This document shows, piece by piece, positions 7,837 through 20,528 of a stretch of DNA of 64,000 bases. Numbering within the stretch: the stretch's first letter is position 1; each line of letters starts with the position of its first letter. The notes beneath the pieces are model-generated. The model was not told the origin of the DNA. It saw only the letters and a program-made list of their open reading frames with translations, and did not search any database. The position numbers and the translations under genes are program-made. Source of the stretch: Lophium mytilinum (Eukaryota); the NCBI GenBank assembly GCA_010093605.1, contig MU004184.1:2118801-2182800 (forward strand), given 5' to 3'.

Positions 7837-10800
7837 TCACTTCTGCTCCATCTGTCCTCCCTTCTTCGTGGTCCTGTTCTTCACCTTGCCAACCCCCCTT
7901 GAGACAGCACCGAATCCAAAACTCCACCCCTTAATTCTCACCGCCCAGATAAAGAAATATACTAATGCCCAATTGCTCATGCAAAACGCGAGGAAGATCC
8001 CGAAATCGCGCCACTTATCACTCGCCTTAATGTTGAGCGTAGAGAGGTAATCATTCCCCGAGCTGTACGGACAATACATACAAACGTCCGTCGCGTTAGG
8101 GTCAATGAAATACCCCGGGGAGTTTGCGATGAAAGTTCCAGCATAGTCAACACAAGACTGGCCAGACGGAGGCGTGAAGCGAGCCGTCTCGGCGGGCTTG
8201 CAGGAGATCGGAATTCCATCCAGTGTCGCCGCGAGCACGCCGCCGATCCAGTAGGTAGAGGGGTTGACGTAGTACATCCAGTACTTCCAGAACACGGAGA
8301 GCTGAGCATACGGCCGGATGACGCCGTTGAAGAGGGAGAACATGACGAAGAAGAAGGGGAGCACGTTGCTGATGACAGTGAAGGAGGGCGCGAAGGCGCA
8401 GATCCACTGGCCCCAGCTCGACGTGAAAAGGAAGAACAGCACGCTCATGAGGAAGACGTAGCCGGCGGTGGAGGAGTCTGTGGGAAGACCGGCGGGGTAG
8501 TACCATAGGAGCCAGTAGAGCAGGCCGGAGACGATGGAGATGGGGATCTCGCCGAGGATCTGGGCGGTGCAGAAGGCCACCCAGCCGTAAATGCGAGAGG
8601 GAAGCTCGCGGGCTTGCCAGAGGGCCATGTTTTGGTAGAACTTTGGAACGACGCCGTTGACAATTGTGGGGGGGATGAGGATGATCAGGAAGGAAGTGAA
8701 CATGCGGTTCTGCATGTCTGCGATGGAGTTGCCGAGCATGTAAAAAGTGAAGCCGTTGAAGATGCCGATAATGACAGCGACGAACAGTTTTCCGTAGAGA
8801 TAAGATGGGTCTCTCCAATATTGAGTAAAGACGCGGCGGGTTAGCATGGTTGTCTGAAGCCAGACGGGCGCCGCAAACTCGTGTTCTTCATGAGCGCCCT
8901 CTTCTTTCCGAGTCTGGCTTCTGGAGCTCTTTAATCTTTCAATTTCCTTCATGACCTCTGCGCTGTTTTCCGAATTTTTCCATTCCTTGTCCCAGTTGAT
9001 CCTGGTCCCGTCGGGTCGCTTCATGGGTTTAGCTGCAGTTTCAAGAATGAACTCGGCGACGTTTTTATTTGGGGGAGCCTGCACTCCACGGTCGGCGAAG
9101 TACTTGATAACGTCTTTGCCATTCTTGCCGACGGGACCGAAGTAAAACGTATTTCCGCCTGGATTTAGGGCCAGAACTAAAGGTCGCAACACCCAAGTTA
9201 GCAATAATTCATAAAGGGACTCCAAGGCCAATGATACCCGAGGATGTTCAGACTCCGTTGAAAATACACTAGAATTTCAACGGAGCCTCCCTCTGATTTA
9301 TTTACTGGAACCGCACTTACTCATGTCGAATTGCTGAATCAGAATAGAGCTTGGCTGATGGATGGTGCAAATGATTGCCTGCCCTGCACTAGCCAGCTTC
9401 TTGAGGAATCTGACGATTGAGTAGGCTGAATTGCTGTCGAGTCCACTAGTAGGCTCGTCCAGGAAAAGGAGCAGCGATGGTTTTGCTGCTAACTCGACGC
9501 CAATCGTCAACCTCTTACGTTGCTCGACACCCAAGCTTGAGATAACAGCATCTTGAAGATCGTTGAGTTCAAGCAGGTCGATGATGTTATCCACGTAAGC
9601 TAACTTTTCTTTGCGTGGAACATCCTTGTCTTGTCGGAGGATGGCAGAAAATTCGAGAGCTTCTCTGATTGTCGCCGTTTGATCGTGGAGGTCCATTTGC
9701 TCGCAGAATCCGGTGCCGCGTTGAAAGTCTCGACCCAGAGGTCCACCATCGACCAACATATCACCAGCTATAACGCCGATTTTCTGGCGTTGGGACAAAG
9801 TATTGAGTAAAGTGGTTTTGCCTGCTCCCGACGCTCCTACGAGGGCTACCATTACTCCAGGTTTGGCATATCCGCTTACTTTGTTTAGCAATTTGCGTTC
9901 GCCGCCTTGATATGGGACGGTGTATTCGACATTCTCCCATGTGAAGACGCTTTCGCTCTTGGTTATTTTCTGAAGAGTCTGGTCTTTCGCTCGTTCCTGT
10001 GCCATACTTTGTCCGCTTGATGTGCTGTCTGGCCGTTCCCCAGATACTACTTTTTCTTCATCAGCGGGAGATTGCTGGAGGTTTCTCTTGGTTTTATTTG
10101 ATTTTTTGAAGACCAGCGCTCCTCCTCCACCGGAAGCGAACGAGAACAGTTCGGCTGCTAGTGCAGTAACCAGGATATACAGAACGGTGAATGCAATGAT
10201 AACACCGAAATTTCTCCAGAGATTGCTTCGAGTATACGAAAACGTCGTCTGGAGATAGTCGCTCCCAGTGACTTCATTTGCGTTCACTCCAGCACCAGTC
10301 AAGGAGCAGCCTTGATGCGCAGGATCGATGCCAGGACCCTGCGGAACTAATTGAGAGGGATCACACTGCATAGTCCGGCCGGAAAATTCGTTCGTAATGA
10401 CGCCTTCGAACGCGTACGAGATAGGATTGACGTAATACAACCAACCAAACCAGATGTATTGGGAGATTAGCTGTTGTTTTGGAATAACGTAGCCAGTAAA
10501 CACGATCAGAAGATTCAACGCAAGCCCGCTGAACCGAACTGCGTCGTCGATTGTCGGCGATACGGCTGCAAACATTCGATATAATGAGGTGATGCAAATG
10601 GTCGTTGTGTAGACGAATAAGACGTAGATGAAGAACTTAGAAGCAGTTACGTCAAGCCCCGTCATGAAGTACATGATTAGACAGAATCTAAGGTGGTCAG
10701 CAATTTCTTCTTTGGCTTTAGGGCAGGCCATAAGTCTGTGCACAGTCGTTTGCCACTGCTTGGGAGCACAGTCTCAAGGCAGGCGCGGCGAAACTTGAGC

Positions 10801-12945
10801 AGCATCTTCACTGATCGACTTCCTGCTCAAGAGGCTGCTCTCAAATGTGATGGAAAGCCTCACAAAAGCGGCACCTGGGAAGTGGGGTACGCATGTGCCT
10901 ACGCTCATGGCAAGCACTGTACAAAGGAATGAGGAAGAACTTACATCACAACTTGGATGAAAAGAAGCGGGAAATCCTGCACTACTCGAGCTATACTAGC
11001 TGCCGAGGGACGATAGAACGCATAATCATGATGGCGCTTAACAACAGCCCGTCCCGAGACAGCCTTCATGAGTTCCGAGAGCTGTAGCCAACCGAGGAAA
11101 AGAATAGAGAAGAAGCAAGCTCCTCCTCGAGTAAATGCACCAGCGGTATCTAGCGGCTCTCCATAGAATAGACTACCTACGATCAAGGCATTCGATATGA
11201 TGATGAAGAACTTTGTAGCCCTATTACTAAGTTTAGCATTGTAATAAGAGGCCGCGGAGATTGACTTACAAAGTAGTTTTATCACCCCAAGTCAACCAGA
11301 ACTCTCGTTGTGTGCAGGCCACGACCTGCCGTACGAAGCTGACGGTGTAGCTTGATTTCTTCTGCACAGTTTTGCTCTTGCTTTCTTGAACTGCCTTTTC
11401 AAACTCTTTTGCGTCGACGTAATTCGACTCCTCGAGTTCTTTTTCGTATTCTTCAATATCCTTGAGGATCTGCCGGTAATGCGGGGAAGCTTTAAATGCC
11501 TTTTCCAGGTCCTCTGGCGTCTTTGGGGCTTTGTCTTCGTACCCGTCCCGAAATCGGCGTTCTGAAGGATCGGTTACCGCGGTCAAAAAGTCTGCTGTTG
11601 TTTGCCGCTCAGGGCAGTGGAACCCAAGATCAATGAAGTATTGCTTTGCTTCTCCGGCGTTTCCTTGGAAGACACATCGCCCTTGATCGATCACAAGGAC
11701 CTTGTCCATCTGTTGGTAGATGCCTTCTCCGGCCTGGTAGAGCGTAACGAGCGTGGTCCGATTGCTTACGTCTGTCATAACACGCAGAGACTTGGCATAA
11801 TCGAGAGCGGTAGATGCGTCGAGACCCCTGGTGGAATTGTCCCAGCAAACGAGGGTCGATTTGGTGGCAAGAGTTTCAGCGATGGAGACTCGTTTCCGCT
11901 CTCCACCACTGACTCCTCGCACGTATTCGTCTCCTACCAGGGTTTTCGCGGTATGAGAGATACCGAACATCTTCATCAGGGCGGTTACGATGATTGGGAT
12001 TGAATCCTTTTCACCCTTTTTCGTTTTGTTCAGTAATGCAAAACGTAGAGTGTTCTCGACTGAAATGTTCGCAAAATGTACGTCGTCTTCTGCATTATAA
12101 TTAACCTCTCCTTTGAACTGTTTGTGCTGCTTTTCTGCCGATATGCCTCCGTAGTGGACGTCGCCCGTAACTTCCGCGTATGTTTCTCGGTCATTTGCGA
12201 TTGCTTTCAAGAACGTAGAGCATCCAGAGCCGGGTTGTCCTAAGACCAGCATCATCCTTTCAAGTTGTTAGCTTAGCTAGGTAGCTATTCAAGGGGAATA
12301 CACGTACTCTCCGTCCCGGAGTACACCGCAGAAGCCGTGAAGGAGCGTTCGCGTCTCCACGTGCTTCTTCAGCTTCAAGGCTGGGATGAATCCGGATATG
12401 ATCTTATAAAGGTCCGGTCCAAAGGTTCCGATAACTGCATCAGGAAGTGTCCTGACGAACGCTGTCGTCGATCCCGCACCTTTTACAGTCAGGTTCTTCC
12501 AGGTGACCCCGACCTTCTTGGCGGATACTCCATTCTGGCGCTTCTCGAAATGGCCTTCGCGCATGAAATCGTGCAATTGGAAATCTTCGTCTTTGTCTAA
12601 TGGCTCTTCTCCAGGCTCCGTGTCTTCTGTCCCAGCTGTTGTGGGGCGTCTTCTGCGACTAATGATGCGACTGAGGCCGTCTGATCGTTCCGTCCTATGG
12701 GATCTTGATCTCGACATACTGGTAAGATTCCTTCGCAGAGCCTCGAAGTCTTCCATAGCCATCGTCTCGTTCATATGGCCGGCATCGCGCTCCCCCCAAG
12801 TTCCGTCCAGGTCGGTTGGCGCGCCATCAGGGCTGGAATCGGCAGCCTCATCCGTTTCTGATTCCCGCCTCTGGCGCTCCTCCTCTTCGTTGTGCCATGG
12901 ATTTCTGCCCTTAAGCAGATCGTAGGGCACGCTTGTCCCCCACAT
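7837..12945 (-). CDS. PDR/ABCG-type ABC multidrug transporter (NBD-TMD)x2, 5 exons
   Basis: Exons 12945-12308, 12256-11270, 11220-10945, 10687-9321, 9176-7837. NBD1 has GQPGSGCSTFLK, VSGGERKRVSIAE and CWDNSTRGLD. NBD2 has GASGAGKTT, LGVEQRKRLTIGVEL and LDEPTSGLD. Confidence 0.96.
9253..9285. repeat. Perfect 11-bp inverted repeat (CTCCGTTGAAA / TTTCAACGGAG) inside the 144-nt ABC-transporter intron
   Basis: Read directly. 11-nt spacer. Confidence 0.8.
10736..10902. mobile_element. Degenerate copy of the palindromic MITE-like family, in the ABC intron 10688-10944
   Basis: Left arm GTGCAC...TGCCACTGCTTGGGAGC, right arm GCACCTGGGAAGTGGGGTACGCATGTGC. Weaker similarity to the copies at 26.2, 30.6 and 53.5 kb. 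Confidence 0.4.
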
Positions 12946-14569
12946 CTTGTATGTCGGTAGTAACTTTGAGGACTTGGAGTTGGGGAAGGCACGTCGATTA
13001 CAGGCACACGAAAACGGGTGGGACAGTTAAAAGTATAAGAAGCGGAACTGCGGCGCAGGTGAAGGAGCAACCGTCTAGATGGACCGAAGTTTGCACGCGC
13101 CCAGGAGCAATCACAACAAGCACTTCTGTCCGAGCGGAAAGGGCAGAAGAGGCAAGAGTAGGGGCAGCAGATTATGAATGATGTTTTCAACGGTGACTAA
13201 TTGAGAAGATATCGGACTTAGCTGTACGTCACGTCATACCCTTGTAATAAGGGATTTCGGGTCTGTGGGATAGCTGTGGCCAGCCGCTGGTGCATCCTTT
13301 GGTGCATGCTACCAAACTCTAACGAGACGCCCACAAGTCATATCTCAAGCTAGTGCGGGCCACCAGCGCCGCGGAAACAAAGGTGGCCGCTGAGCGGTTG
13401 CAAGTCAAGTCCTCGATTCTTCTGGACTTAGCGGCGGGTCCTGTCGATCAAGCCGCTCGAGCGGTGAATACATTCCGAACCCTTTGATTGGTGTGCAGAA
13501 AGAATCTCTGCGGCTTACCTGCCGGCTACTTTACTAAGCTCCATACGCGTTGTCGGGAACCATTCGCATCAACAGATGCATCTAGTTGAACAACTCCGAC
13601 ATGAATTACAAATGTCATCGCCCACACAAAACAACCGAATGCGGCTAAAATCTCCATATCGAGCTATATTCGCAGGAGAGCGGGAACGAAAGTGTCTCCC
13701 AAGACTCCATCCGATTAGAAATGCGAAACTCTCTTGTCGAGGTATTTTGAGCTTGATGTAAGCGGTGTGATAGGGTTAAGACGTGGAAATAGCTGCATGG
13801 CACGCAAGACCGGTCTCCCAATGGGGTACAGCTAATTGACCCTTGGGTCTTTCAACGAACTAGCATACTGTTGGGCAACGATAGAGGTTGAAGAGGTGGC
13901 AGTATTGGAGGAAGCTGAGTGCTTGCAAGAGGCGCTGGGAGCGTCGGGAATACGGGTTTTAGGAGTTATGTGGAATTAAGTGCCGTACATCCGGTGGCAT
14001 GTGGCTCCTTATCGTCTTTCCTGTACTGTGGTTGAGAAGAAAAAAACCTTGAGAATTTTCAGTAGGACCCCGCGGGAGCTCGGGCCATGTTGGGCAATCC
14101 TCCAGATTCGTTCTTGCTCTCAACATCACAAGAGTCGGAAGCCTTCACTAACACCAAATTAACTGAAAAATGAGAATCTAGGCTTAAGACATATAAATGA
14201 GTAGAGGTTACGATGCTGATGCTCTAAGAAAAGACTGCCGACACGCTAGAATATAGAACTAGATGATTTCCTTAATTTCTTACCTTGAACCCTCTGTCAA
14301 TGTCCTCTCTCCCAATGTCCCTTCTTTCATCTATCAGCATACTACAGGAGACATCATGGGTCTTTCCCAATGAACATTTCTCGACTCTTATCCCCGAGCC
14401 GGAGGTTTCGTGTTGGAGCCTATACCTTCTACGCCTAGTCGTGTCGTCATTCATGACTACGACCACGTTCACTTAAGTCCATAGAAGAGAGCAAAGACTC
14501 AGTGACTGTGTGGTGTATGGAAACGGTTCGGAAAATTGAAGTAGGAGCTCCCTCCGGACCACGCTTGGC

Positions 14570-14660
14570 ATGGAAAAAGGGACACACTCATCAATATCTG
14601 TCTTTTGCACTCGTGTGTACACCTATCTGCCAATGCTTGAAGTGCTTCAACAAGTTTCCA
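14570..14660. mobile_element. Partial (left-arm) copy of the MITE-like family
   Basis: CTCGTGTGTACACCTATCTGCCAATGCTTGAAGTGCTTCAACAAGTTTCC aligns with 26240-26290 and 53552-53600. Confidence 0.65.
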
Positions 14661-14867
14661 GAGAGTAGCTCGCTGGAAGTTGGTGTGCGATATCTAAGGG
14701 CAGGAGTGCACCGTTAGTTTACGACTGCCTCAAGTATTGCAGAAACCTTGTGTTCTATTCCGTTACAGGATAGCTCCTTTCATTCGACACCACCCATTCT
14801 CAAGCTCGACGAACTTCCTCTCACAACTACGCACTCGATACAAACACTCTACTGCATGTCCATTCGC

Positions 14868-14916
14868 GCCAATATGAATAGTACATACGTGCCAATATGA
14901 ATAGTACATACGCGCC
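14868..14916. repeat. Near-perfect 23-bp tandem duplication (GCCAATATGAATAGTACATACG[T/C]) x2
   Basis: Read directly. Confidence 0.9.
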
Positions 14917-16401
14917 TATTCCTAACGGAAACCACCGGCATTCACATCCGAGCTCAATAGCGTCGAAAGTTCCTCAAGCTCTTAATAAGGAAAAATGAGG
15001 ACATGAACAGCGTGAGCTCGGAGGACGGCGTCCTAGACGTGACGTTCTCTTCCAGGCATGAGAAGGCGCGGGGGGGAAACCAGAATCACGAACTAGTGAG
15101 ATTCGATCGCTCTCTTGCTCGAACATATGGCTCTAACGTCCTAAGGTCGAGTGGCTCCGTTGGCGTCTTCAGGAAATGGTACCCCTAGGCGAGCAAACGA
15201 CACGTGAAGAACTTGAAAAGTTGACGAAGACCGCGGAGGATGTGATAGGTGTGAGATTTGTCTTGAATCATCAGGTGGGTATGTCTGGAGACCGAGTTTG
15301 CAGCTAGTAAGTTCAATTCGTTCTTTTGTTGCAAGCTCTAACATTGTAGCTCAACTGGCTTTTTCAGCTGGTCCAGGGACTCGGACAGCACTACCGGGAA
15401 AGCATGCTCAAACGGGGCCTGAGTGACCCATTGACGGTTGAAACTTTGCACATGGAGGTGTCTAGAGTGGACATAAAGTTCACGTTCAATCACAAAAATA
15501 TGGACTGGCTTTGGAAACTCCAGCTTGTAAGCTTGAATCCTTCTCTTGTTGGTACGTGTCGTTCTGATGTACGCTAGCACGAATGGTTTATCGAAGAACT
15601 TCGGAATATCGGAGCTAAGTACGACCATTGCTCGTCAGTTTCACTTGTAAGAAGCACCTGCAAATCTCTGATCGCAGTCCGGACCTTAAAACACAACGTC
15701 ACGTTGGGATAGAAGGAATTCCAGCCTCTGACGACGGCTACTTCGCTACCGAATGTGGAAATGGAAGATCACCAAGGTGCCATAGTGCTAAATCCCGATC
15801 AGCTTAGATGCTTGAATATTACCCGTATGTGGTTGGATTGGAGCTACTCCCTGATCTCTCGTTAGTATGGTGGTTGGAGGGTACGATTGAGCTGCATTTC
15901 TCTCTTGATCGTGTACTATGCATACCGTAGTTGCTTATATCATCTCTACGAGATGAAAGCAAAAAGCAGAGATGACTGCTACCAAGCTTTCAGTCTTTCA
16001 TCCATTCAAAAGCTTCTAGACTACAGTGCGTGACGTAAAAAACACATATTTTCAAGATCTATTCTTCGAATAGCATCATGTCCGAAAATATGATGGTCCA
16101 AATTGCTCACTCGACACCACTGTCAGAGGTAGCCTGGTTTCCAAAAAGCCAGGTAGTCAAGAGATAGTCAAGCGCTCGTGTAACACATGCAAGCAAGGCA
16201 CCTCATGGGGCCACTACACACAGCTCACGAGGTCAACGCTCCCTGTGTGGAATGCATCCACACATGCTCGTGCAACCTAACCGCATGCGTCACCCACAAA
16301 GCTTCCTTCACACGTCCATACAGCACCCCGCCAATTAATTCCCTCACCATTAAAAGGAGCCCATCTATGTACACTCTTATATTTCCGCAGCACCCCAAAT
16401 C

Positions 16402-16647
16402 AGCTCAGTGGCGCAGCGGCAAGTAACCCAACTTCCTCTCTTCAAATACTAGGCTAACAAATCGCAGGAAGCGCGGTATGTTGCCCTTTGTTCGAGGTCT
16501 TGGGTTCAATCGACTGACGGTCCATCTAGCCGGGCTCATATATATACATATATTGTGTTACCCGGAGGACAACGGTATGTCGCCTGAACTTCTCGGACCT
16601 AGATCCCCCGCTGATCTCAAATTCAGGATCGAAACCGTTCTGAGCTA
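16402..16647 (+). tRNA. Initiator tRNA-Met(CAT) split by three spliceosomal-type introns and one canonical tRNA intron
   Basis: Exons 16402-16418, 16468-16475, 16530-16540, 16560-16574, 16627-16647 join to AGCTCAG TG GCGC AGCGGAA GCGC G CCGGG CTCATAA CCCGG AGGAC AACGG ATCGAAA CCGTT CTGAGCT A (72 nt). All four stems pair perfectly. Initiator signatures: A1:U72, three G-C pairs 29-31/39-41, A54 and A60 in the T-loop (AUCGAAA). Introns: 16419-16467 GCAAGT..GCTAAC..CAG; 16476-16529 GTATGT..ACTGAC..TAG; 16541-16559 canonical at 37/38; 16575-16626 GTATGT..GCTGAT..CAG. Confidence 0.93.
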
Positions 16648-16657
16648 TCAAGCTATC

Positions 16658-16664
16658 TTTTTTT
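16658..16664 (+). terminator. Pol III oligo-T terminator (T7) after tRNA-iMet
   Basis: TTTTTTT begins 11 nt after the discriminator A. A further T6 run follows at about 16670. Confidence 0.8.
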
Positions 16665-17252
16665 GGCAATTTTTTGGGGTTTGTGGCACACACATATGAC
16701 TCACGGCATGTTTTATTTTTATTTTTTGAAGGTGGAGTGGATTTGAAGCTAGCGAAGGTGGATCTAGTGGGTAGAAAATGGGCAGAGATAAAGTGGCAGT
16801 CTAGGGCCGTTTGAGGTGGCGGAGGCCCATTAACTTTGTCAAATCTTGTCGTTTGTATAGTTTTGATAATGTACAGAGGAACTTAAGCTGTGTAAGGTAA
16901 AAGTGTGTATCTGAATCAAACGGTGGAGAAAAGAACCACAGGCTCGTGGTCTGCCACTTTTGTTCAAGGGAGCCTGATCGGGATAGGATTCGCTAAGGCA
17001 TGCGTTTCGTTTTCACCAACGCGGATTGTATAGAAATTCACCTATTTGAACAACTCACAAGATTCGTTGGACTCAACAAGGCGTTTTCTGCATGAAGGAC
17101 GGCTTTGTTTTTGAGTGCACATACATCTGGTCCGCGACCAGAGATGCTACTCATTTCATAGTACATTTGAGTCTATCCAGCCTACTAACGCTCCTAGTAC
17201 GGCTGGTGAGAAGCAAGACCGCTCTGTGATCTTCCGCCTCGCTCAACTAGGT

Positions 17253-18145
17253 CTAATTCACTTGCGTGCCATATCCCCTAATCCCCTCCGCAAACGCCCA
17301 ACTCTGGTTCTCCAGCTTCTCGTTCTCCTTCAGTTCCACGCCCTCCTTCGTGATCACCGCAATCGAGTACTTGTCCATGCTCCTCGCATCCCGATAGAAC
17401 AGCACCTTCATAGACTCCTTGACCAACTCCACCGCCTGCTCCTTCGTCACGCTCGCAACCGTCGCCTCGTCCGGTACCGTACGCCTGAGAATCGGCTGCG
17501 CCAAATGCGCTCCGAATCCCGTCGCAAGCGTTGGGCTTGAGAACGTTGTGCCTAGCAGATCCGCGCTCGCGAGGAAGGGCTTATTCTCGCCATCCAAGCC
17601 AGCCACCAGCAGGTGGTTCCACAGCGGGTTGAAGTCGGAGCGGCGCTTGTACATGACCTTGGAAAGATACGTGTGCAAGTTCTTGGCGTGCAGCTGGGCG
17701 TCGGGGGACTCCTCGGCGTAGTTCTCGCGGATGTCGAGCGAGGAGAGTAGGCGGTCGAGGTATTGCATGTCCGAGACGTCGCCGCCGAAGCCGACAACGG
17801 CGCGTGTGTTAAATTTGCGGAGACGCTTCACGTCGGTGAAGCGGGCGAGGGAGCCATATGATGCTGCGAGAGTGTTAGTTTGTATTCAATGGAAAATGCA
17901 GATAGATTGGCGTGCCTAGGTTGTCCGCTGCGATCACTACGCCGTCCTTAAACTTCACTGCTATGACCGAGGTTCCTGTTACGATCGGTGATTGTGTGTG
18001 CGTTGTGGGGCCAGAGGTCTGTAGGAAGGAGTTGCTGTATGCGCCGTAGACGTCGTCTCGCGGCTGGGAGTTTGTTAATGGATGGAGAGGTAGGCTAGAG
18101 GTTTGAGATGCTTACACGGCCCCAAGCTTGAGGAAGGTGATTCAT
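17253..18145 (-). CDS. PRE4: 20S proteasome subunit beta-7
   Basis: Exons 18145-18116, 18063-17916, 17863-17253. Motifs [71 protein letters not shown]. Intron 2 is GC-AG. Confidence 0.96.
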
Positions 18146-18423
18146 GTTGGCGTGGGAGGAAGAGGACGACTTTCGAGTTGAAGGTGAGTCTGTGGAGATG
18201 TGTAGTAGAGTATGGGTGGGCTTCGAGGTGGGAGCTGCGGTGTTGCGGTGATGGGTCCAGGTCTAGGCAGCTTAACGACGCGAAAGCTGTCTGGCGGCGG
18301 CTTCAGACTTGGTCCGAGCTCCATTTTTTGATATAAGATGGCTTTCACAAATTTTGCACATTCTAAGAGGCATAGTTGGTGGGTATACGGCTTCATCAAT
18401 TACATAGCATCTCCATCGCTCAC

Positions 18424-19445
18424 TCACCTTGACCGTGAGCGTCTCCGCCCTGGCGACCGCGATCTGCTACGAAATCTTCGCCTTCGAGGCTCGTCTCGCC
18501 CACCTCGATGCTCGTACTCCTTCCGCTTGCCACGATCCTGAACCAATGGACTAGGCTTCTCTTTATCCAAGTTAGCCATGACTCTCTCTGCCGCGCTGCC
18601 TCTGGAAAGGTTCCCCCCAGGCGTAGCAGCCCTACTGGAAGCTCCTGAGGCCGACGCCGGAACGAATTCGATCGCTTCCCTCTGCACTTTTGCTTGCTCC
18701 GCCTCGCGCTGTTTCGTGATTTCTTTTTGGCTTGCAACCAGCTGATCTGCGTATGCCCACTTAGGAAACTTAGAAGGAATAGCCAGCTCCTCTGGCAGAG
18801 TTGACGCATACTGGTCAATCTCGCTGATGCCCGCGAACTCCATCAACTTCTGTAAGTGACTGGGATTCCTCAAAGCTGATGTCTTCTCAATTCTCTCGTT
18901 GAAATGCACTCCCCGCTTCTTCAACTCCAGAAACTGCGCGAATCTTGCTGTGGGACCGGGTCGAGGAGAGCCTGGTGGAGATGGTGGGATATTGAAGTTT
19001 GGTATGGGTGGCATTGTAAGATTTCGAATGATGAGTCGAGAAGCAGAATACGGCGATAGAGGCGCGGAATCGCCTTCTGCTACACTATTGACTGGCGGCG
19101 GAGTCGCAGACGGCCCCATCGTTGGCCCTACCACGGGATCCTCACGGCCTGGTTCATCCTTGGGTTGTGTTGTGGGAGCCAGAGCTGGCTCGTTCGATAT
19201 GGCCGCATCGTCTAGCTAATTTCAGCATAGACTTCTGATCAGAACTGGGCTTTGACGTACGTATAGGGGCTATGCTGGATTTGACAGGGGCCTGTTGACT
19301 GGTTGCTTTTGTCTGCGTCTTGTCTATTAGTAGCTATCCGGCCTTTTGTAGAGGGTTGACTCGAAGCTGAACTTCTTACCTGCTCTTTGACTGGAGCAGC
19401 GACCTCTTCCTCGTCATCGCTGCTCGCATAGTTCAATCCCAACAT
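18424..19445 (-). CDS. HCNGP/SAP30BP-like protein with RS-rich tail
   Basis: N-terminal MLGLNYASSDDEEE exon (19445-19380). Main exon has IPPSPPGSP...FLELKKRGVHFNERIEKTSALRNPSHLQKLMEFAGI and ends RSRSRSPGRRRSRSR. The middle exon boundary is uncertain. Confidence 0.85.
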
Positions 19446-19685
19446 GATGTGTGAATGTGTTGGAGGTGAGGGAGTGTAGAGCATGGGTCTTCAAGATATC
19501 TGATAAAGCCTTGGCAAAAACGTCTGTGAGGCGGAAGGCATCAAGCTCCGCGTCAACTCCAAACGAAGCTCCATCACCAGCTTCCACGACCACTCACCTC
19601 CTCACCACCGCATTCCGTGAACGAACCCTCCCTATCCCTCACTACTGCCCTCTCCTCGTCCATCAGAAGCATCAATCTACCCACC

Positions 19686-20528
19686 ATGGCCTCAATATTC
19701 GCCGGAGCACCGCCAAATGGTGCACCAGGCTACTCTTTCGCGCAAACACCCACCGCCGCCCCTTCCGGCATTCGAGAACACAGCTTCTATCCGTACGATA
19801 TCTATACCCTCTCGAGAACCTCTCACTGATAACCCCCCAGCTACACCGACAACGGAGGCTCCACACTGGGCATATCCGGCGCCGACTTCTCTATCCTCGC
19901 TGGCGACACTCGCTCAACAAGCGGATACAGCATTAATACGCGCTACGCCCCCAAGCTCTTCAAGATCGGCGGCGAAGGACCCGAGAGCAAAGGTGCACGC
20001 ATCGTGCTCTCCGTCGTCGGCTTCGCGGCCGACGGTGAAGCCCTCAAGGAACGCCTCGACACCATCGTCAAGATGTACAAGTACCAGCACGGCAAGCCAA
20101 TGAGCGTGGCCGCGTGTGCGCAACGCCTGTCGCATATCCTCTACGGCAAGCGCTTCTTCCCCTACTACGTTACGGCGATCCTGGGCGGGCTAGATGAGGA
20201 GGGCAAGGGCGCGTTATACAGCTACGACCCTGTGGGGAGCTACGAGCGGGAGCAGTGCCGAGCGGCGGGTGCGGCGGCGAGCTTGATCATGCCGTTCTTG
20301 GATAATCAGGTCAACTTCAAGAATCAGTACATACCGGGGAGCGGAGAGGGCCATGCGTTGCAGCAGCGGGTGCCGGAGCCGCTGCCACGGAAGGATGTGG
20401 AGGAACTGGTCAAGGATGCGTTCACGAGTGCAGTAGAGAGGCATATTGAGGTTGGAGACGGGCTGCAGATGATGATTATCACGAAGGATGGCATCGAGGA
20501 AATATACGAGGAGCTGAAGAAGGACTGA
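19686..20528 (+). CDS. PRE7: 20S proteasome subunit beta-6
   Basis: Exons 19686-19792 and 19841-20528. Motifs FYPYTDNGGSTLGI, LAGDTR, LYGKRFFPYYV, YSYDPVGSYERE, FTSAVERHIEVGDGL. Confidence 0.97.

Follow-up and report, generated by a model that had tools for sequence, protein, structure and literature searches.

To our knowledge, the introns of nuclear tRNA genes are held to be of one kind, cut out by the tRNA splicing endonuclease and almost always located between positions 37 and 38. The spliceosomal introns of snRNA genes are usually explained by the closeness of these RNAs to the spliceosome's active site. The closest known system to the locus described here is that of the fungal U6 snRNA genes with mRNA-type introns. 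A 2018 review, in its available part, names U6, U2, U5, U1 and rRNA as the RNAs with spliceosomal introns, tRNA not being among them, and describes fungal U6 genes with up to four such introns, including the U6 gene of S. pombe, whose B block is located inside an intron (PMC5855946). The splicing of a Pol III transcript thus has a fungal precedent. Fungal U6 resembles the tRNA gene of our study in being a short structural RNA with the layout of an internal A/B-block Pol III promoter and with canonical GT-AG introns; it differs in that U6 is a component of the spliceosome, whereas a tRNA is not, and in that the tRNA also needs RNase P, RNase Z and the SEN endonuclease. Since a tRNA is not part of the spliceosome, the origin proposed for the U6 introns, reverse splicing in the active site, is not directly applicable to it.

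Other described systems share single features with the locus. In SNR6 of S. cerevisiae the A and B blocks are separated by ~200 bp, as compared to 30-90 bp in tRNA genes, and transcription is still TFIIIC-dependent, according to the available part of the same review (PMC5855946); in human tRNA genes the distance is 30-67 bp (PMC11811891). The spacing of SNR6 is close to the 206 bp found here, but its B block is located downstream of the terminator and the gap is thought to be bridged by chromatin or Nhp6, whereas the B box of the tRNA gene lies within the predicted transcribed region. The nuclear rRNA genes of ascomycetes also contain spliceosomal introns (Bhattacharya et al. 2000, as cited in the part of PMC5855946 available), and they are similar to our case in carrying introns of the spliceosome type in a gene not transcribed by Pol II; they are, however, Pol I genes for long RNAs, in which no internal promoter is at stake. 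Finally, the tRNA genes of Cyanidioschyzon merolae, nucleomorphs and archaea are broken at several positions outside the anticodon loop, including the D and T arms, but their introns, as described in the available part of the source, form bulge-helix-bulge motifs and are cut by the endonuclease (PMC3978253), unlike the introns reported below, which have GT/GC-AG ends, branch words and the length of mRNA introns. A full-text literature search, with subscription journals mostly outside its coverage, returned no publication that describes spliceosomal introns for a nuclear tRNA gene, and the available parts of PMC3879985 and PMC11782384 make no mention of them.

An initiator tRNA-Met gene in four exons

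In the window, by which we mean the whole 64-kb stretch of Lophium mytilinum DNA that was analysed and to which all positions refer, a gene for the cytoplasmic initiator tRNA-Met is located at 16402-16647 on the plus strand; it consists of four exons, and it is real and expressed. The tRNA is interrupted by three introns of 49, 54 and 52 nt with GT/GC..AG ends, and by one ordinary 19-nt intron in the anticodon loop. When the raw window was examined with ARAGORN and with Rfam at gathering thresholds, no RNA gene was reported at the tRNA locus; at E<=1, Rfam gave two weak and unrelated matches in the window, none of them at this locus. We removed the three introns in silico by their coordinates (16419-16467, 16476-16529 and 16575-16626) and submitted the joined sequence to ARAGORN, which called a tRNA-Met(CAT) of 72 nt with a complete cloverleaf and a further 19-nt intron at 37/38. 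Eukaryotic initiator tRNAs are distinguished by an A1:U72 pair, by an anticodon stem that has three consecutive G:C pairs at its base and by A54 and A60 in the T loop. The ARAGORN drawing has the A1:U72 pair (the top pair, a-t), an anticodon stem with three G:C pairs at its base (ccggg/cccgg) and the T loop ATCGAAA.

The exons were assigned from ARAGORN on the joined sequence, supplemented by the DNA sequence or by RNA contigs of a public run, referred to here as X1. Exon 1 (16402-16418), for which the DNA sequence was also used, covers positions 1-18 of the tRNA, that is the 5ʹ strand of the acceptor stem, U8 and G9, the 5ʹ strand of the D stem and part of the D loop. Exon 2 (16468-16475), the letters of which are also found in an X1 contig, is a micro-exon of 8 nt corresponding to G19-G26. 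Exon 3 (16530-16574) extends from C27 to G52, contains the 19-nt tRNA intron and is colinear in the X1 contig over 16529-16573, and exon 4 (16627-16647) comprises G53-A73. All of them are on the plus strand, as is the conventional 37/38 intron, which we place at 16541-16559 and ARAGORN at 16542-16560, its ends being ambiguous by 1-2 nt within an AT repeat. The three other introns are inserted at 18|19 in the D loop, at 26|27 where the D arm joins the anticodon stem, and at 52|53 in the T stem; an earlier note on this DNA had proposed the junctions G18|G19 and G52|G53, and the 72-nt cloverleaf obtained after intron removal bears them out.

We ran all eight combinations of intron removal through ARAGORN, and a tRNA was called in two of them, with all three introns out and, in an odd model, with only introns 1 and 3 out. 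In a control with shifted boundaries, five of the six shifted versions were still called as tRNA, so that ARAGORN alone leaves the exact intron boundaries unfixed. The three introns give a complete initiator tRNA on removal, and the exons exceed what is expected by chance.

We also searched for similar loci elsewhere. In a metagenome scan with a loose pattern (exon 1 followed by the 5ʹ splice word), none of the 120 matches listed was accompanied within 420 nt by the T-loop word of the initiator, and the loci listed, at least 120 in number, were nearly all chance matches in GC-rich coding DNA. In prokaryote genomes scanned with a gapped exon 1-intron-exon 2 pattern, all 42 matches were due to chance and no orthologous locus was among them.

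Introns 2 and 3 are removed in RNA

The RNA evidence comes from one public run (X1) of one study in the form of assembled contigs, which we compared with window positions 12500-20500. The contigs contained seven joints that skip 48-67 nt, with the ends GT..AG, CT..AC or CT..GC, and since neighbouring introns are skipped, the run behaves as a transcriptome. Contig depth was 0 over 16238-16504. The tRNA locus is represented by one contig of 2866 nt (record 4), the first eight letters of which are the G preceding exon 2 and the first seven letters of exon 2. They are followed by 16529-16573, by a GT..AG joint to 16626, and then by colinear sequence without any difference as far as 17863. The start of the contig coincides with the last base that the forms with intron 1 spliced and unspliced have in common, a position that would be expected from a branch in the assembly graph. 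Thus, introns 2 and 3 are removed exactly in RNA from the tRNA locus, at the predicted GT..AG sites. Still present in this contig are the 19-nt intron of the tRNA and ~9 nt or more of the 3ʹ trailer. Since introns 2 and 3 are gone while the 19-nt intron and the trailer are present, spliceosomal splicing precedes both the trimming of the 3ʹ end by RNase Z and the step of the tRNA endonuclease.

The neighbours of the tRNA gene in the window include a PDR-type ABC transporter, two proteasome subunits and an HCNGP-like protein. The closest cluster in the Atlas is composed largely of Ascomycota, and the fungus is probably an ascomycete. The transporter gene is a large PDR/CDR-type gene of several exons on the minus strand (7837-13026; Pfam ABC_tran, ABC2_membrane, PDR_CDR and ABC_trans_N). 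A convergent proteasome-subunit gene lies downstream of the tRNA gene (17253-18063, minus strand; Pfam PF00227), with CT..AC and CT..GC joints, and the X1 contig joins its transcript to the RNA of the tRNA gene. Record 4 is continuous over 16626-17863, across the T7, T6, T5 and T6 runs described below, and it also fuses two minus-strand genes, those of the proteasome subunit and of the HCNGP-like protein. Because these genes are separate, contig continuity does not define one transcript, and a read-through product of Pol II cannot be told apart in it from an overlap with the convergent gene's 3ʹ UTR. The continuity may reflect Pol III read-through, such an overlap, or a true Pol II transcript; in yeast, Pol III read-through extends 50-200 nt, as given in the available part of PMC5356446.

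Several further observations concern the upstream side. A spliced plus-strand transcript is present at 15074-15993, with a GT..AG intron at 15527-15577; its longest ATG-started frame has 85 aa, and it may be a gene for a small protein or a non-coding RNA. At 16095-16135, several X1 contigs end and run on into unrelated letters, with loose ends on both sides, which points to a short element, repeated and transcribed, at ~270-300 nt upstream of the tRNA gene; this stretch contains a small hairpin-like inverted repeat. At 14625 (A>G) and 14633 (A>C), near contig ends, most X1 contigs differ from the window; these may reflect variation between strains or copies of a repeat family.

The introns have the features of spliceosomal introns

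Intron 1 (16419-16467, 49 nt), which is a prediction from the sequence, begins with GCAAGT and ends with CAG, with the branch-like word GCTAACA 13 nt from its 3ʹ end. Intron 2 (16476-16529, 54 nt) has the form GTATGT..TAG with the branch-like word ACTGACG, and its removal in RNA is indicated by the X1 loose end at 16529 that carries the letters of exon 2. Intron 3 (16575-16626, 52 nt; GTATGT..CAG, branch-like GCTGATC) is removed in RNA, as shown by the X1 joint from 16573 to 16626, which skips 52 nt with GT..AG ends. All three are on the plus strand, and each has a CTRAY-like branch word, read by eye, at 13-14 nt from its 3ʹ end. Being 49-54 nt long, they are within the length range (48-67 nt) of the six neighbouring RNA-supported introns. 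One of these six, at 17864-17915 on the minus strand in the proteasome-subunit gene, has GC..AG ends in the X1 contig, which indicates that GC-AG introns like intron 1 are in use in Lophium mytilinum. By their ends, branch words and length, the three introns are predicted to be spliceosomal introns of the U2-type GT/GC-AG class.

Alternatively, the tRNA splicing endonuclease might cut all three introns at bulge-helix-bulge motifs, the GT..AG ends being coincidental. Cyanidioschyzon, nucleomorphs and archaea have genes of this sort, with several introns, some of them in the D and T arms, as described in the part of PMC3978253 available, but the coincidence would have to extend to the GT/GC..AG ends, to a well-placed CTRAY-like word and to the local mRNA intron length in each of the three introns. 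In minimum-energy folds of the introns with 14-nt flanks, a simple and crude test, motifs of two 3-nt bulges on either side of a 4-bp helix were absent from the cut sites of introns 1-3, and a crude helix count gave them at best three of four pairs, as compared to four of four for the real 37/38 intron, whose fold lengthens the anticodon stem in the usual way. Moreover, it is this 37/38 intron that remains in the RNA after the loss of introns 2 and 3, which also counts against endonuclease cutting. We regard this explanation as hardly credible.

An introner-like origin was considered as well, and within the window it is unsupported: by blastn against the 64 kb each intron matched only itself, so there are no near-identical copies, and pairwise alignments of the three introns gave scores no better than 43-75 of 300 shuffles, so that beyond the splice signals they are unalike.

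The A and B boxes are kept mainly by the exons

In its DNA the gene retains the arrangement of a type-2 Pol III gene, with both an A and a B box and with a terminator in the form of a T run. The A-box word TGGCGCAGCGG (16409-16419, plus strand) corresponds to tRNA positions 8-19; ten of its letters belong to exon 1, and intron 1 begins with the eleventh, its final G. This is the place, about +8 to +19 relative to the mature RNA, of the A box in type-2 Pol III genes. The B-box word GGATCGAAACC (16626-16636, plus strand) begins with a G that is the last base of intron 3 and has its remaining ten letters in exon 4; compared to GGTTCGANNCC it has one mismatch, which is the initiator-specific A54. 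Both words had been reported in the earlier note at these positions and were found there, and the spacing of about 205 bp given for them agrees with our measurement of 206 bp from the end of the A box to the start of the B box (217 bp from start to start), which is outside the 30-90 bp of tRNA genes.

It had further been claimed that the boxes survive intron insertion because the terminal Gs of the introns rebuild them. This explanation is not supported, since each intron touches one peripheral G of a consensus, and this G would be supplied by any GT-AG intron. We enumerated the possible insertion junctions and found that 53 of the 71 keep both 11-mers intact, which corresponds to 0.42 for three independent introns; 18|19 and 52|53 are the only junctions inside a box that preserve both boxes. 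Thus, the boxes are intact mainly because they are located in exons, to which the terminal intron Gs add one peripheral base each. The survival is real, but as both boxes would be kept in ~42% of random three-intron configurations, it does not show selection for a promoter. In addition, the A and B words consist of residues required by the tRNA itself, and so their presence is uninformative on promoter use.

In intron 2 we noticed two words that match the B box at 9 of 11 positions (16489-16499 and 16503-16513), located 70-84 bp after the A box; they recall the B block inside the intron of S. pombe U6. As a signal they were rejected: words with at most two mismatches to the B box occur 302 times in the window, as compared to 321 expected, and with ~0.37 expected per 155 nt of intron, two in 155 nt are not significant.

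A cluster of T runs follows the tRNA

Downstream of the gene, on the plus strand, the segment 16658-16727 contains a T7 at 16658, a T6 at 16670, a T4 at 16711, a T5 at 16716 and a T6 at 16722, which together make a candidate Pol III terminator with back-ups. The T7 (16658-16664), already pointed out in the earlier note, is indeed present and starts 11 nt after the discriminator base A73 (16647), a distance within the limit of <20 nt after the mature 3ʹ end that is used for oligo-T terminators in the available part of PMC5356446. The same part of this source gives the run required by Pol III for termination as T4 in vertebrates including human, T5 in the fission yeast S. pombe and T6 in the budding yeast S. 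cerevisiae. Runs of six or more T occur 13 times on the plus strand of the 64 kb, and runs of seven or more five times on both strands together. The T7/T6/T5/T6 cluster is the densest of the window, with four runs of at least T5 in 100 nt, the next best place having two, and the chance that a run of at least T6 starts within 20 nt of a given point is ~0.4% (plus strand, 64 kb). The position of the T7 is non-random, and it is better evidence than the survival of the boxes or the absence of T runs from the gene.

That absence, also noted earlier, is confirmed for runs of four or more, the longest T run in 16403-16647 being a TTT at 16487. The proposal built on it, that the introns are constrained to avoid Pol III terminators, fared differently, as the absence is at chance level: 51.9% of the 245-nt stretches of the window on both strands also have no run of T4 or longer, and 83.5% and 96.6% of them have no run of at least T5 and at least T6, respectively. 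The comparison with other introns goes in the same direction, since five of the six neighbouring RNA-supported introns are also without T4; among candidate introns defined by pattern the figure is 14 of 18. No constraint against T runs in the introns is demonstrated.

The reverse complement of the T cluster contains two AATAAA words (16723 and 16717). This stretch (16717-16728, minus strand) could serve the convergent gene as a poly(A) signal and at the same time act as a Pol III terminator, that is as a two-way terminator.

Discussion

The explanation that we find best for the locus as a whole, with a probability of roughly 0.5, is an initiator tRNA gene with spliceosomal introns, a type-2 internal Pol III promoter and serial processing of the transcript. 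Pol III would start from the type-2 internal promoter with the A box at its normal place, the B box, 206 bp away, would be reached by TFIIIC, whose flexible linker would bridge the gap, and transcription would terminate at the T7/T6 cluster 11 nt past the end of the tRNA. The primary transcript would be spliced by the spliceosome, as are the precursors of fungal U6, and the spliced precursor would then be processed by RNase P and RNase Z, by the SEN endonuclease and a ligase, and by the addition of CCA.

As to the polymerase itself, the layout of the DNA inclines us to think that the tRNA gene is transcribed by Pol III. Against this stand the distance between the boxes, which exceeds that of tRNA genes, the continuity of record 4 through the T tracts, which is compatible with a Pol II transcript insensitive to T runs, and the AATAAA words, as the T cluster may be kept as a poly(A) region of the convergent gene. 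The tRNA gene might instead have moved to Pol II, in which case the transcript would be capped at an upstream start, spliced co-transcriptionally and polyadenylated downstream, and the folded tRNA would be excised by RNase P and RNase Z, which are indifferent to the polymerase that made the precursor. The A and B words would then be merely residues of the tRNA, and the T cluster a relic or an element serving the convergent gene, a purpose to which its minus-strand AATAAA words are suited. Splicing coupled to Pol II would also accommodate three introns and an 8-nt micro-exon more readily, but for fungal U6 it is established that Pol III transcripts are spliced by the spliceosome, as described in the available part of PMC5855946. 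A Pol II-made tRNA has a precedent in the tRNA-Sec of Trypanosoma brucei, which would be the model in this case, although the part of the source available does not describe spliceosomal introns within the body of that tRNA (PMC2943599). CCAAT-like and TATA-like words occur upstream of the tRNA gene, at distances of 70, 50 and 20 nt, but they are short, were read by eye and fit either polymerase. The spliced contig does run unbroken through T7/T6/T5/T6 to 17863, but as it fuses the separate genes of the proteasome subunit and of the HCNGP-like protein, this continuity is not that of one transcript. The T7, in turn, is exactly at the place expected of a Pol III terminator, in the densest T cluster of the window. 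Taking these points together, we consider transcription by Pol II unlikely, yet clearly worth keeping in view.

It is also conceivable that the locus is a side copy, which no longer supplies initiator tRNA and yields a spliced non-coding RNA or a degraded by-product, while intron-less genes elsewhere do the work. Our survey of genes covers the 64-kb window, such intron-less initiator genes may exist elsewhere in the genome, and the intron removal supported by RNA is that of introns 2 and 3 only. However, all 72 exon positions form a flawless cloverleaf with the initiator hallmarks, and a dead copy with four insertions would be expected to drift. The precise removal of introns 2 and 3 in RNA and the intact splice and branch signals of all three introns also speak for a working gene, and we consider a side copy improbable.

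If transcription by Pol III and serial processing are correct, this could be, as we tentatively propose, the first nuclear tRNA gene to depend on the spliceosome for its maturation, with a Pol III transcript of ~260 nt that is spliced three times, an 8-nt micro-exon and a GC-AG intron being involved, and is then a substrate of RNase P, of RNase Z and of the tRNA endonuclease. As both ARAGORN and Rfam miss the gene, initiator tRNA genes may be falsely scored as absent in some fungal genomes. A tRNA with three spliceosomal introns does not fit the explanation by nearness to the spliceosome's active site, and this bears on the question of how introns are gained. The gene would also provide a natural substrate for asking whether the spliceosome is efficient on Pol III transcripts, which have neither the CTD of Pol II nor a cap; if Pol II is the polymerase, it would instead be an example of a tRNA gene taken over by Pol II. 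If our reading is true, two unrelated splicing machineries act serially on one 72-nt RNA, and if the gene is also the sole source of initiator tRNA, all translation initiation in this fungus would depend on the relay between the spliceosome and the endonuclease.
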